Origin: Vulcanimicrobiales bacterium
GTDB taxonomy: Bacteria > Vulcanimicrobiota > Vulcanimicrobiia > Vulcanimicrobiales > Vulcanimicrobiaceae
Direction: 5' to 3'
Assembly: GCA_038215615.1 (NCBI GenBank)
Contig: JBBQQR010000001.1
Location: forward strand, 32,001 to 96,000
Length of the DNA stretch: 64,000 bases
Part shown: in pieces, positions 24,001 to 27,000 of the stretch
How the letters are laid out: each line of letters begins with the position of its first letter
Numbering within the stretch: position 1 is the stretch's first letter
Position numbers: made by a program

Positions 24001-27000
24001 GCTTTACAGCGGGGGCGATAGGGGCTATTCTTTTTTCGAGCTCTTTTTAAGGAAGGTGCTCACGGTCATGGGAGGCGCGCCCTTACGCGCCATCGCGGCA
24101 AGCCGCACGCGCACCGAAAAAGCGCCGGCAAGAGCTCGCCGATAGGTCGGGGACGTGGCTGCACCGCAGGCGCCAGCCGACAAGTCCGGAGGTGGGATTC
24201 CCACAAGTCGAGGAGAGCGCAGAATTGAAAGCACTCGGTACGCACATTGTGTGCGAACTCTCGGGGTGTGACCCGACGGCCCTTTCGGACGTAGACGGCG
24301 TCCACGCAATGATGGTCGCAGCAGCGCGAGCCGCGAACGCGACTATTCTGCAGAGTTCGTTTCATCGTTTCGAGCCGCAAGGCGTCTCGGGCACGGTGAT
24401 TCTGGCAGAATCGCATCTCTCGATCCACACCTGGCCTGAAAAGCAATACGCCGCCATGGATTTTTACACGTGCGGCGATCACACGGACCCATGGCTGGCT
24501 TGCCTACACGCAGCCAAGGTTCTCTCCGCAAAGCAAATGTTGACCACCGAATTCAAACGGGGCATCGAATCAAAAAACGGGACCTTTACCCACGTCGTAA
24601 CGGCAACCGAAGCAAAAGATCGACCGCGAACCGCCTAGCCGCGGTTCTTATTTCGTAAGCGATGCCGAAGACCGAACGCTGGCAGTGGTATGTCGAACAA
24701 TTCTCTCCCACCGAACAGCATCATCACGCCGTCGAGCGCGTGTACTACGCGGGCCGCTCGCAATTTCAAGATATAGGCATCATCGGCACGCCCGTTTTCG
24801 GGAAAATGCTCATTCTCGACGGCGATACGCAGAGCTCTCAAGCCGATGAAAAGATCTACCACGAGGCGCTCGTGCATCCCGCAATGGCCGGCGCCGGCGA
24901 TCGCGCTGATGTCTTAATCCTTGGCGGCGGCGAAGGCGCGACGCTGCGCGAAGTGTTGCGGCATCCCGGCGTACGGCGCGCCACCATGGTGGACATCGAC
25001 GGCGACGTCGTCGAACTTTCCAAACAGTATTTGCCCGAATGGTCCGCCGGTGCTTTTGAGGAGAAGCGCGCGCGCGTGATCGTCGGTGACGCGCTCAAAT
25101 TTTTGGCCGAAGACAAAGACCGCTACGGCGTGATCATCTCCGATCTGACCGAGCCGCTGGAAGACTCGCCGAGCAATCCGCTTTTTTGCGACGCCGTTTT
25201 TCGCGACATAAAAAACCGGCTCGCTCCGGGCGGCATCTACGTTCTGCAAGCGAGTACCGCGGGGTTCCACAACTTGTCGCTGCATGCGAAAATGGCGCGC
25301 ACGCTGCGAAAGTACTACAAAAACGTGGTCTCCTATTACACGCACGTGCCCGCATTCGACAACGATTGGGCGTTTATTGCCTGCAGTGATGACGTCGATC
25401 TCGCTCGCCTGGATGAAGGTGACATCGAGCCGTACTGTAGCGAGTTGCGCGGCGAGAATTTCTTCTACGACTCGCAGACGCATCGCCGCATTTTCGCCTT
25501 GCCGCTCTATCTGCGGCGCGCTCTGGCCGAATCCGGAGAGACGTTTTGAGCTCGATCGATCAGGATTCGGTCCGGCGGCAGTGGGATAAGGAACGCTCGC
25601 ACTTCGTCGAGCTGCTCGATCTGAAGCTGGAAAGCGTCGACAAGGGCGCTGCGGTCATGCGCATGCCGTACCGTTCGCAGATTTCCAACGGCACGGGAGC
25701 CGTGCACGGCGGCGCGATCGTCAGTTTGTGCGACACCGTCTTTTACGTGGCGCTTGCGTCGCTCTACGGACGCGACCAAGATACGACGACGGCTTCACTC
25801 CAGTGCAACTTTCTGGCACCGGCGGTCGGTCCGCACGATCTCGTCGCGGAGGCAACCGTATTGCGAGCCGGACGGCGGATCTGCTACGGCGAAGTCACCG
25901 TGCGTTGCGGTGACAAAGTCGTGGCGCACTCTACGCTCAACTACTTGAACTCTTACGCGAGCGAGAAACCGGCAAAAAAATGAAACGTACTGCTCTTTAC
26001 GACGAGCACGTGAAACTGCGCGCCCGCCTGATTCCGTTCGGCGGTTTCGACATGCCCGTGCAATATCAAAGCATTTTGCAAGAACACGAAGCCGTGCGTA
26101 AAGCGGCGGGTCTTTTCGATCTTTCGCACATGGGACAGTTCATCTTGGAAGGCGACGGTGTGGCCGAATGGGCCGATGCGCTGACCGTGAATGCCGTTCC
26201 TACGATGAAACCGATGCAAGCGCGCTACAACATTTTTACGAACGCGCGCGGCGGCGCGCACGATGACGTTATTTTCTACCGCCTGGCCGATCGCTGGATG
26301 CTGGTCGTCAACGCCGGTAACGCCGACAAGATGTGGAAGCATCTCAACGATAACGCGGGCGGCTCGGGAGTGAAGCTGACGTCGCTGCACGGCCAGAACG
26401 CGCTGATCGCGATTCAGGGGCCGCGTTCGGCCGCCATGCTGCAGCCGCACACCGACGCCGACCTGAACGCGCTCAAATACTATTTTTGTTCCGAAGGCAG
26501 CGTCTACGGCAAGAAGGCCGTCATCGCACGGACCGGTTATACGGGAGAAGACGGTTTCGAACTCTTCGTCGATGGAGCCGACGCACCCGAGATATGGGCA
26601 AAGCTCTTGGGCGACAATGCGGGCAACGGCTTGATTGCGGCGGGTTTGGGAGCGCGCGATGTCTTGCGTTTGGAAGCGGGCATGCCGCTCTACGGCCACG
26701 AGCTCACCGAAGAGATCACGCCGCTGCAAGCGGGCTTAGCCTGGGTCATCAAGATGAGCAAGCCTGAGTTTCTCGGGAAAGCCGCCCTGGAAGAACAGCA
26801 AACCCGCGACGACTACCCGCGCATCGTAGGAATCGTGATGGACGGCCGGGCGCCCGCGCGCGAAGGCTACCATGTTTTTCTGGGCGAGAAGCGCGTGGGC
26901 GAGATCCGCAGCGGATCGATCGGGCCGTCGGTCGGGAACAAGAGCATCGGAACGGCGCTGGTTGAAAAGGAAGCCGCAACTCCCGGCACGGACGTAGTGG

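Follow-up and report, generated by a model that had tools for sequence, protein, structure and literature searches.

A conserved, covarying RNA in the 5' leader of speH is a riboswitch candidate in Vulcanimicrobiaceae

The speH gene of this Vulcanimicrobiales bacterium is preceded by a real, complex and covarying RNA that is a good riboswitch candidate. We analyzed it in a window of 64,000 nucleotides (positions 32,001 to 96,000 of contig JBBQQR010000001.1, assembly GCA_038215615.1), to which all coordinates given here refer. Positions 24038-24227 form the 5' leader of the speH-speE operon, which most likely regulates the operon in cis and probably controls the amount of SpeH that is translated. 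SpeH, an S-adenosylmethionine decarboxylase, serves the synthesis of polyamines, which are needed by nearly all cells. Genes and expression signals are arranged as follows:

24003..24031, + strand: promoter-like site found by a consensus scan, with the -35 box TTTACA (24003-24008), a gap of 17 nt and the -10 box TATTCT (24026-24031)
24210-24215, + strand: Shine-Dalgarno sequence GAGGAG of speH, read from the sequence
24225-24227, + strand: start codon UUG of speH, read from the sequence
24225-24638, + strand: speH (start TTG), S-adenosylmethionine decarboxylase (Pfam AdoMet_dc, 5.7e-39)
24662-25549, + strand: speE (Pfam Spermine_synth)
25546-25983, + strand: 4HBT thioesterase gene (Pfam match)
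24225..25983, + strand: putatively controlled operon speH-speE-4HBT thioesterase, from the Pfam matches

From the promoter-like site, the RNA is predicted to start near 24038; inspection of the sequences reveals TTTACA-type boxes at the equivalent position in leaders of other families. DNA conservation among relatives begins at about 24061-24070 and continues into speH. An earlier note on this DNA had placed the element at 24061..24228; the RNA probably begins further upstream, at about 24038 with an additional hairpin (P0), and that range takes in the Shine-Dalgarno site and the start codon of speH. Its statement that the leader has no terminator agrees with our search of the + strand between the promoter-like site (24031) and the speH start (24225), in which no terminator-like site was found. 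The start codon of speH is UUG in 54, AUG in six and GUG in five of 65 family leaders. Contigs from four metatranscriptome studies join the leader to speH (e.g., 24063-24278 and 24181-24443), which is weak evidence because such contigs reveal neither the ends of the RNA nor its strand or level, and the parts left uncovered are uninformative.

The leader is better read as a row of domains, with an H-type pseudoknot at its 5' side, two long hairpins and a small 3' hairpin, than as the five to seven helices around multi-stem junctions that had been proposed before. Its parts are:

24038..24061, + strand: P0, a hairpin adjoining the transcript start, GAGC (24038-24041) with GCUC (24058-24061), read by eye from the sequences
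24070..24091, + strand: 5' H-type pseudoknot, GGG (24070-24072) with CCC (24080-24082), loop positions 1-3 of hairpin Pa
24074-24079 with 24086-24091, + strand: hairpin Pa, from the comparative alignment
24096..24141, + strand: Pb (24096-24103 with 24134-24141) enclosing P3 (24105-24112 with 24122-24129)
24130-24133/4, + strand: conserved joiner AAGAG between P3 and Pb
24146..24181, + strand: Pc, a long hairpin (outer stem 24146-24150/24177-24181, middle stem 24152-24155/24171-24174, tip 24159-24162/24166-24169)
24185..24204, + strand: 3' module, with GGAGGUGGGA at 24188-24197 and GGAGGUG at 24188-24194
24185-24188 with 24193-24196, + strand: P5, UCCG with UGGG, from comparative pairing
24192-24196 with 24200-24204, + strand: module hairpin, GUGGG with CCCAC, from comparative pairing

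We scored 42 hand-drawn base pairs of this structure on an alignment (A1) of 65 leaders that was made with MAFFT, excluded unpublished genomes and was not fitted to any model. Of all cells, 93.1% are paired, compared to 30.1-47.3% when the partners are slid by 1-3 columns; double-sided changes were found in 27 of the 42 pairs (7-11 when slid), and cells with double changes number 209 (14-28 when slid). Not one of 500 shuffles matched the real value on any of five measures, although the significance of this control is overstated since related sequences are not independent. The claim that a conserved structured RNA lies ahead of speH is thus borne out by covariation on an alignment made without a model. 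The predicted fold of the single sequence disagrees with the comparative structure, and its energy of -76.3 kcal/mol compares with a mean of -76.8 kcal/mol for shuffled sequences (z 0.11), no signal in this G+C-rich DNA; as the single-sequence fold is no better than shuffles, the structural evidence is comparative. Conservation of the leader is strong, if less extreme than the 65 invariant and 45 nearly invariant columns that had been counted over 22 genera: the 65 leaders of A1 have 25 and 48, respectively. The long invariant unpaired stretches that had been described recur in A1 as AUCGCG, CCGGCAAGAG, GAUAGGUC and GGAGGUGGGA.

Individual helices vary in sequence while keeping their pairing. 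Pa is paired in 99.7% of the cells of A1; one of its pairs is GC in 43 and AU in 21 leaders, and a G-C pair of the family is C-G in the sister family. Double-sided changes occur at seven of the eight pairs of Pb and at six of seven in P3, which carries a conserved C-C mismatch, varies in tip length from 9 to about 45 nt and is absent from one divergent genome (L067). In Pc, which has a conserved A-C mismatch in its middle stem and the loop ACC, such changes affect seven of nine pairs plus three of the four tip pairs, one of the latter being CG in 34 and GC in 29 leaders; one clade and the sister family have entirely different yet paired sequences there. The sequence of P0 also differs among genera, a relative of the same genus having GAGCUC/GAGCUC and others GGACC.../...GGUCC or GCCG.../...CGGC, as seen without a formal count.

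The pseudoknot takes the place of a closing helix, P1, that RNAalifold had proposed between the 5' GGG and a 3' CCC. Among 104 distinct genome leaders, the pseudoknot strands are GGG/CCC in 92, AGG/CCU in seven, GGG/CCU in three, GAG/CUC in one and another combination in one, and the 3' C-run stays CCC throughout this variation. The 75 metagenome leaders (GGG/CCC 68, AGG/CCU 5, GGG/CCU 2) provide a second, separate sequence set in which the pseudoknot covaries. P1, which is just 81.9% paired in A1, was dropped because the 5' triplet follows the loop of Pa and not the 3' C-run. A long-range pairing between the 5' end of the transcript and the linker or Shine-Dalgarno region, at which the single-sequence fold and visual inspection had hinted, was rejected as well; cognate duplexes had a mean energy of -15.6 kcal/mol vs. 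-16.5 kcal/mol for non-cognate ones, with a median rank of 0.58 over 104 leaders.

Using our own covariance model (R1) in place of the earlier one (R2), we found the element as a single copy per genome in 69 of 70 Vulcanimicrobiaceae and in two of two genomes of the sister family, the same counts as reported before; the only family genome without it also lacks SpeH. Of 81 family genomes, six of them unpublished, 72 have a DNA match to the leader. Among the nine others, seven are also without a SpeH match, one has its speH 48 nt from the end of a contig and one possesses only a C-terminal speH fragment. Copies of the sister family share the architecture and differ in the sequences of their helices and by an insertion of 40 nt. 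R1 did not find the whole fold in any of 79 genomes from 19 other families. The view that the element occurs nowhere else in the phylum therefore holds for the whole fold; it does not hold for the 3' module, which 38 of 50 leaders carry ahead of speH, representing 14 of the 16 other families examined.

The element always stands in front of speH, as had been stated: this gene follows it at 104 of 104 full-size genome loci, and SpeH is encoded behind 113 of 113 metagenome loci with readable downstream DNA. Because the element is only ever linked to this gene in this arrangement, its surroundings are of no help in narrowing down the ligand. Four metagenome loci seemed to have other genes behind the aptamer; these loci, which lack SpeH, score at most 14.4 bits with R1 and were discarded as chance pattern matches. 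The reported lack of a match in Rfam was confirmed with all 4227 families at E<=10, which yielded only noise both in window positions 23700-24400 and in 20 diverse homologous leaders; at gathering score, the whole window gave no match, T-box and r-protein leaders included.

Could the conservation reflect something other than regulation? An independent gene for a small RNA, an unnoticed gene for a small protein, or spillover of conservation from speH or its promoter would each leave a conserved stretch here, and mechanical open reading frames do overlap the region on both strands; in the bacterium's own genus, a GTG within the module is even in frame with speH. We regard such an origin as very improbable. 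The four overlapping frames have no Pfam match, the loops contain many indels of 1-2 nt, and the base changes are compensatory, not synonymous. The spacing between module and start does not preserve a frame (33 nt in the window vs. 38 nt in another leader, L004), and the element retains a constant orientation directly before speH, to which RNA contigs join it.

The 3' module deserves separate consideration. GGAGGUGGGA is unchanged in all 65 rows of A1, and in the form GGAGGUGGGAUYUCCC the module is what the other families of the phylum carry ahead of speH, from which it follows that the element is composite. In those families, the 3' arm changes in such a way that the pairing persists and the 5' arm remains constant, which suggests that the sequence itself is recognized. 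The distribution indicates that the module is the old, phylum-wide part and the aptamer-like domain the later addition; its retention in families devoid of that domain implies that the module can work without it. P5 and the module hairpin are mutually exclusive because both use the same UGGG. P5 is 100% paired in A1, but its changes are one-sided only, so the pairing is compatible with the data and not proven by them; in metagenomes, its 5' strand is UCCG in 40, CCUG in 30 and UCUG in five cases. The module stops 6 nt ahead of the Shine-Dalgarno site, and the linker from module to speH start measures 25-54 nt over the 113 metagenome loci. We searched for the module plus a speH start outside the phylum also; of the at least 120 pattern loci listed from 48 of the 64 parts of a species-genome collection, four belong by title to clearly different phyla, lack SpeH and amount to about the number expected by chance. 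These four belong to Streptomyces, Solirubrobacterales, Gemmatimonadetes and Hyphomicrobiaceae. A small upstream open reading frame that would begin at the module's GUG or AUY was rejected: it lacks spacing to the Shine-Dalgarno mimic, does not stay in a fixed frame relative to speH, and its variation is not of the synonymous kind.

At all seven of its bases, GGAGGUG is complementary to the CACCUCC of the 16S rRNA tail. This was judged from relatives, six of 21 of which allowed the tail (GGAUCACCUCCUU) to be read, as the 16S end of the bacterium's own genome is not assembled. No conserved start codon was found within 12 nt behind GGAGGUG; the module is thus a Shine-Dalgarno-like sequence complementary to the 16S tail with no start codon behind it, as in stabiliser-SD and standby elements. 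The module's conserved partner may not be a metabolite but the ribosome or a protein. An element directed at the ribosome without any small-molecule ligand would use GGAGGUG to bind the 16S tail of the 30S subunit, as a standby site, as a decoy or as a stabiliser-SD that wards off a 5' exonuclease, and its upstream domain would serve as a scaffold governing the accessibility of this site, perhaps with unspecific tuning by polyamines, Mg2+ or temperature. The complementarity, the absence of a start codon at working distance, the weak UUG start of speH in most leaders and the fact that GGAGGUG is the most conserved part (65/65 family leaders, 38/50 from other families) all fit this reading, and both stabiliser-SD elements and standby sites are known kinds. 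Nevertheless, we consider it rather unlikely, since a plain scaffold would leave a pseudoknot and about 125 nt with near-invariant junction and loop bases unexplained. The 10-mer GGAGGUGGGA occurs at only two places in the bacterium's own genome and is hence no general device of the organism, and the module at 24188 would lie about 150 nt from the predicted RNA start at about 24038, whereas stabiliser-SD elements reside near the 5' end.

A protein partner would make the leader an autoregulatory one, with translation repressed by an RNA-binding protein, be it SpeH, SpeE or, for instance, CsrA. CsrA binds GGA in hairpin loops; the module contains two GGA motifs and the Shine-Dalgarno site a third, and CsrA (PF02599) is encoded in the bacterium's own genome, in 66 of 70 family genomes and in both genomes of the sister family. 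Control of the pathway by the AdoMetDC protein itself has reportedly been seen in trypanosomes. Still, CsrA was not found in three family genomes that carry the element (two of them 97-99% complete), and it was detected in only two of nine genomes (one unpublished) of one other family (f3) and in none of six of another (f13), although both families possess the module; this patchy presence weakens CsrA as a universal partner. SpeH and SpeE display catalytic Pfam domains only and no known RNA-binding domain, and protein-binding leaders are usually smaller and poorer in conserved unpaired bases. Taken together, we find a protein-binding leader unlikely.

We see about an even chance that the leader is a translational riboswitch of undescribed fold that is built in two layers. 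The old layer is the phylum-wide module, in which the invariant GGAGGUG is a perfect Shine-Dalgarno mimic, hairpinned with a pyrimidine run and located 25-55 nt ahead of the real ribosome-binding site. The younger layer, restricted to the family and its sister family, consists of the pseudoknot, Pb/P3 and Pc, which together make up an aptamer-like domain some 125 nt long directly ahead of the module; the last small helix of this domain, P5, would compete with the module hairpin for UGGG. Binding of an effector to the domain would fix P5 and capture the G-rich arm, and the pyrimidine run freed in this way would alter the access of the 30S subunit to the real Shine-Dalgarno site. Spermidine or a different pathway product is the likeliest effector, with repression as the outcome, if one reasons from the known spermidine riboswitch and from the usual logic of end-product control. 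Of the new riboswitch class acting on translation that the earlier note had proposed, the usual marks of a candidate (cis location, covariation, one copy per genome, no terminator, no Rfam family) stand; ligand, switch and direction are what we infer. When the G-rich arm was blocked in a partition-function model of 104 leaders, the Shine-Dalgarno site was unpaired with a mean probability of 0.58 instead of 0.61; 27 leaders lost more than 0.1 in exposure of the site, 15 gained more than 0.1 and 62 hardly changed. With shifts so inconsistent in direction, the proposed relay is not supported by these energies, and the pairing of the module's pyrimidine run (UUCCC in the family) with GAGGAG is weak.

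An identical architecture would also suit a riboswitch that turns speH on with the substrate SAM instead of off with the product. The 15 leaders with higher Shine-Dalgarno exposure upon capture of the G-rich arm would agree with such a switch, which we nevertheless hold to be quite improbable: a biosynthetic decarboxylase is less often induced by its substrate than repressed by the end product, and none of the known SAM aptamer families matched window positions 23700-24400 or the 20 leaders at E<=10. The SAM-I model (RF00162) in particular had no match at E<=10 in window positions 23700-24400 or the 20 leaders and none at E<=1 in the bacterium's own genome, whereas five of 14 control genomes match. 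SAM is, for its part, the commonest riboswitch ligand in bacteria, according to PMC10853860.

Returning to repression by a pathway product, the closest known system is the validated spermidine riboswitch (Salvail, Balaji, Roth and Breaker 2023, PMC10853860), which the literature check of the earlier note had overlooked. According to that paper, this class consists of SAM-I variants ahead of speE, speB, speD and ldcC; it comprises 13 examples with the four-stem junction of SAM-I and an intrinsic terminator in Bacillus-like and related Gram-positive genera, represses speD, speE and speB, and is the first validated class of polyamine RNA sensors, rare and reported in 2023, with further polyamine classes expected by its authors (PMC10853860). 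Before it, natural RNAs sensing polyamines had long lacked acceptance. This class and the speH leader resemble each other in acting in cis ahead of polyamine synthesis genes (there speD and speE, here speH-speE) and in end-product feedback, the likely logic in the speH leader. They differ in that the speH leader has no SAM-I match, no supported closing helix and no terminator, belongs to another phylum and is probably controlled at the level of translation. RNA control of the polyamine pathway is therefore already known, and the fold of the speH leader is not. With SAM-I itself (RF00162), the leader shares a similar size, several helices and a SAM-using gene under control, but its elements come in another order.

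A few G-rich words in the speH leader, among them a GGAGGUGG-like word and CCGGCAA, look SAM-I-like by eye; these and the equally visual k-turn- and FMN-like resemblances carry no weight. SAM-II, the SAM-III SMK box and preQ1 are translational riboswitches and, together with RNA thermometers, use pairing among Shine-Dalgarno, anti-Shine-Dalgarno and anti-anti-Shine-Dalgarno strands. As in these systems, the real Shine-Dalgarno site of the speH leader comes after a G-rich Shine-Dalgarno-like strand and a pyrimidine strand, all near the start codon and with exclusive pairings; here, however, the mimic complements the 16S tail perfectly over 7 nt, does not vary across the phylum and is apparently older than the domain, and the energies did not confirm a simple relay. 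Stabiliser-SD (STAB-SD) and standby sites of Bacillus and Escherichia coli are generic, short and close to the 5' end. The module resembles them as a strong Shine-Dalgarno-like sequence of the 5' UTR with no start codon following, but it is gene-specific, hairpinned and placed behind a large conserved fold. In Schizosaccharomyces pombe, polyamines reportedly control the translation of SAM decarboxylase via the 5' UTR of spe2, and the eukaryotic mode is said to involve an uORF peptide or scanning. Enzyme, translation and 5' leader are common to both cases, whereas the domain of life differs, and no conserved uORF was found in the speH leaders.

Comparison of the sequences makes the speH leader a well-supported candidate for a polyamine-pathway RNA with a fold different from that of the known class. 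More tentatively, it may represent a second class of polyamine-pathway riboswitches, structurally unrelated to the first, in which an aptamer was grafted onto an older, phylum-wide Shine-Dalgarno-mimic device and the ligand, once bound, would determine whether the mimic or the real site is visible to ribosomes, or neither of them. In that case, the module on its own elsewhere in the phylum would be a new ribosome- or polyamine-responsive switch for SAM decarboxylase. The two-layer build would offer a rare case in which the assembly order of a regulatory RNA, first the module and then the younger aptamer-like domain, can be read from genomes. A literature search for Eremiobacterota and riboswitch found no paper on regulatory RNA in Eremiobacterota/Vulcanimicrobiota. 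More than 200 natural sequence variants of the leader are available and a first cultured species of the phylum has reportedly been obtained, so that the question of the ligand is directly testable.

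The gene speH (S-adenosylmethionine decarboxylase) is separated from a minus-strand gene (22350-23768) by a spacer of 457 nt, which carries the element studied here, a structured RNA at 24038-24227. It is accompanied by the following features:

24003-24031, plus strand, promoter-like site TTTACA-17 nt-TATTCT
24210-24215, plus strand, Shine-Dalgarno site GAGGAG of speH
24225-24638, plus strand, speH, UUG start codon (Pfam AdoMet_dc, E 5.7e-39)
24662-25549, plus strand, speE (spermidine synthase), downstream of speH
25546-25983, plus strand, gene for a 4HBT thioesterase, downstream of speE

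The promoter-like site predicts an RNA start near 24038. Between this site and the speH start codon we found no terminator-like site on the plus strand, in agreement with an earlier note on this DNA. Four metatranscriptome runs, each from a different study, contain contigs that cover the leader and link it to speH (e.g., 24058-24207 together with 24209-24359 at 99% identity, 24063-24278, 24140-24243, and 24181-24443), and none in these runs covers DNA upstream of 23999. They hint weakly at transcription of the leader together with speH, since neither ends nor strand nor level can be read from such contigs and libraries of this kind may contain DNA.

Folded as a single sequence, the element scored no better than its shuffles (z 0.11), so that all weight for it lies on comparison. 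We searched the DNA of 81 genomes from the family Vulcanimicrobiaceae, six of them flagged as unpublished; 72 had a match, with conservation from position 24061-24070 onward. A covariance model matched none of the other nine; seven of these also lack a SpeH match, in another, 48 nt separate speH from a contig end, and the last holds a C-terminal fragment only. With these accounted for, no intact speH with readable upstream DNA was seen without the element in the family. We located speH in 66 fetched loci, left out one from an unpublished genome, and aligned the remaining 65 leaders with MAFFT (alignment A1). Invariant in A1 are GGAGGUGGGA and 15 further columns, and 48 more columns are at least 90% conserved. 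Unpublished genomes enter only the 81-genome DNA tally (six) and the rows for one other family, f3 (one of 9), in the counts of covariance-model matches, SpeH and CsrA; the alignment, the pair counts and the sequences given depend on none of them.

Guided by compensatory changes in the alignment, we assigned 42 pairs and tallied them on A1, which is fitted to no model. Paired cells made up 93.1%, against 30.1-47.3% when the 3' partners were slid by 1-3 columns; 27 pairs had changed on both sides (7-11 when slid), and 209 cells carried such changes (14-28 when slid). These data bear out the conserved, structured RNA that the earlier note had proposed. None of 500 shuffles reached any of these measures, a control that overstates the case because the sequences are related; the slide control is the fairer one. 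Double changes occurred in seven of the eight pairs of helix Pb, 6/7 in P3, 7/9 in Pc plus 3/4 in its tip, and 2/6 in Pa. The small 3' hairpin P5 had none in its four pairs, yet it remained 100% paired through changes from U-G to C-G. In the two copies from the sister family every helix is present but built from different sequence: for example, Pa has C-G where its invariant pair is otherwise G-C, Pc has an entirely different sequence, and P3 is extended by 40 nt.

The earlier note had arranged the helices around multi-stem junctions, and RNAalifold suggested a closing helix around the entire fold, in which a 5' GGG would pair with a 3' CCC run. The covariation of the 5' triplet with the Pa loop argues against this helix. 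Among 104 distinct leaders from public genomes, the triplet and the first three Pa-loop bases read GGG/CCC in 92, AGG/CCU in seven, GGG/CCU in three, GAG/CUC in one, and otherwise in the last; the 75 distinct metagenome leaders gave 68 GGG/CCC, five AGG/CCU and two GGG/CCU. AGG never stood opposite CCC in either set, and the 3' run stays CCC in leaders whose triplet and Pa loop change. Because the two change together, the 5' end of the element (24070-24091) is, judged by this covariation, an H-type pseudoknot. The element thus reads as a row of domains (P0, the pseudoknot, Pb/P3, Pc, and then P5 with a 3' module) with no closed multi-stem junction. Pairing of the RNA 5' end with the Shine-Dalgarno region over long range showed no covariation.

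R1, a covariance model of 144 positions that we built on A1, matched exactly once per genome in 69 of the 70 other family genomes and in 2/2 of the sister family; being independent of the model behind the earlier note, it reproduces the distribution given there. The sole family genome lacking a match also lacks SpeH. Elsewhere in the phylum (Vulcanimicrobiota/Eremiobacterota) R1 found nothing (0 of 79 genomes from 19 other families); SpeH is present in 136 of these 151 genomes, including 9/9 of the nearest other family. A pattern joining the module to the first speH codons, scanned over 48 of 64 parts of a set with one genome per bacterial or archaeal species, gave at least 120 loci (about 160 estimated). 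The 120 matches listed comprise 104 with the full fold (>100 bits), 11 module-only speH leaders, one cut by a contig end, and four chance matches that lack SpeH and lie in records titled as other phyla; the titles of those listed refer almost throughout to lineages of Eremiobacterota or Vulcanimicrobiota. The full fold also occurs in a few records (L101, L110, L129, L147, L156, L168, L182, L190, and L191; 112-150 bits) titled Acidoferrum/Acidiferrales, Binatia or Rhodospirillales; labels or binning of these nine MAG contigs may be off. A pattern for the aptamer-like core (pseudoknot, Pb/P3, and Pc) with no speH part, scanned over 44 of 64 metagenome parts, gave at least 120 loci (about 170 estimated). 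In 113 of the 120 listed, SpeH comes immediately next on the same strand, 25-54 nt past the module; three others are true copies cut by contig ends and four are chance matches (at most 14.4 bits). The claim that the element always precedes speH therefore held, with no copy before any other gene among the metagenome matches listed.

The statement that it occurs nowhere else in the phylum stands for the full fold and fails for the 3' module. The last 16 nt of the element, GGAGGUGGGAUCUCC(C), recur before speH in families that lack the full fold, 33-81 nt ahead of the start codon. By a strict criterion (GGAGGUG or GGGGGUG within 120 nt) the module is present in 38 of 50 leaders and in 14 of 16 other families, with GGAGGUC in two more; in three of the 38 the counted match is the real ribosome site, although inspection by eye shows a further copy upstream. 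The 5' arm does not vary; changes in the 3' arm preserve some pairing (CUCC, UCCC, CUCACC opposite GGUGAG, UCCAC opposite GUGGA, and ACCC opposite GGGU). The tail of the 16S rRNA is assembled in 6 of 21 relatives and not in our own genome; in those six it reads GGAUCACCUCCUU, and its CACCUCC is exactly complementary to GGAGGUG. The phylum-wide invariance of this complement speaks for a ribosome-directed standby, decoy or stabilizer element, a reading that we consider unlikely. A protein-binding leader is a somewhat fainter prospect: CsrA is encoded in the own genome but was not found in many module-bearing genomes. The composite build, and a Shine-Dalgarno mimic kept before one gene throughout the phylum, are the unexpected parts of the finding.

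As the earlier note had reported, the element belongs to no Rfam family: none matched at E<=10, either at 23700-24400 or in 20 diverse homologues, and the whole window (1-64000) contains no match at gathering score. Its nearest known counterpart is the spermidine riboswitch class, SAM-I variants with 13 examples in Bacillus-like and related genera, which precede speE, speB, speD, and ldcC and act as off switches through transcription termination (PMC10853860). The two share the pathway, whereas the speH leader has no SAM-I model match, closing P1 or terminator. Riboswitch control of spermidine synthesis is thus no longer a new idea. No RNA leader of speH in this phylum was found in the literature, with subscription journals and supplements outside the scope of the search. 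In structure the element is a cis-regulatory leader of a new kind, belonging to a known category and lying outside every described family.

A large, covarying and conserved fold, many invariant unpaired bases, and strict cis linkage to one biosynthetic operon are combined here with two features just 5' of the real Shine-Dalgarno site, a mimic of that site and a pyrimidine run. We give a putative metabolite-binding riboswitch roughly even chances, and spermidine, the candidate ligand, would account for about half of that expectation. The reading to which we commit is a translational off switch that senses a pathway product, with spermidine as first candidate. The same UGGG is needed for P5 and for the module hairpin, so that the two pairings compete; the family-specific domain would bind the effector, and binding would fix P5 and so alter the effect of the module on ribosome access. 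When the G-rich arm was blocked in a partition calculation on 104 leaders, the probability that the Shine-Dalgarno site is unpaired moved on average only from 0.61 to 0.58 (27 down, 15 up). The riboswitch proposal of the earlier note is partly supported, by the fold and the linkage to the speH operon; these energies gave no confirmation of a relay to the Shine-Dalgarno site.

The start codon of speH is a weak UUG in 54 of the 65 family leaders (AUG in six, GUG in five); UUG is also used in the nearest other family, and AUG or GUG mostly in more distant ones. In the own genus a GTG within the module is in frame with speH, so that a mechanical ORF there (24192-24638) is 11 codons longer than the gene; other genera do not keep this frame. 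The 10-mer GGAGGTGGGA has only two sites in the own genome, the second at G000:C11:11959-11968. In several distant families (L082-L093, L215-L248) the real ribosome site before speH is AAAGGGGUGGCUUGCC-AUG, almost letter for letter, and resembles the upstream module GGAGGUGGG (24188-24204), so that one pyrimidine arm could be the partner of either G-rich word. In some of these leaders a CCCA stands 10-15 nt ahead of the module and could base-pair with the module's UGGG. Distant families of the phylum (L082-L093, L096, L178) have conserved, ahead of the speH leader and at the same place as 24003-24031, a -35 box of the form TTTACA (often TATTTACAAA) together with a TAnnAT -10 box; the upstream leader domains differ by family in size and sequence.

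One genome, G077, has two copies of the element with speH on short contigs (C36:1896-2166 and C112:8254-8519; L061 and L064), whose SpeH proteins are 71% and 70% identical to the query. Since this genome is 87% complete and 4% contaminated, the pair probably reflects two strains in one bin rather than a true duplication. In locus L067 (G047:C22) of one family genome, with an unusually divergent SpeH (49.6% identity), the element is shortened: P3 is deleted, and a short loop caps Pb. This naturally occurring deletion could reveal the role of P3.
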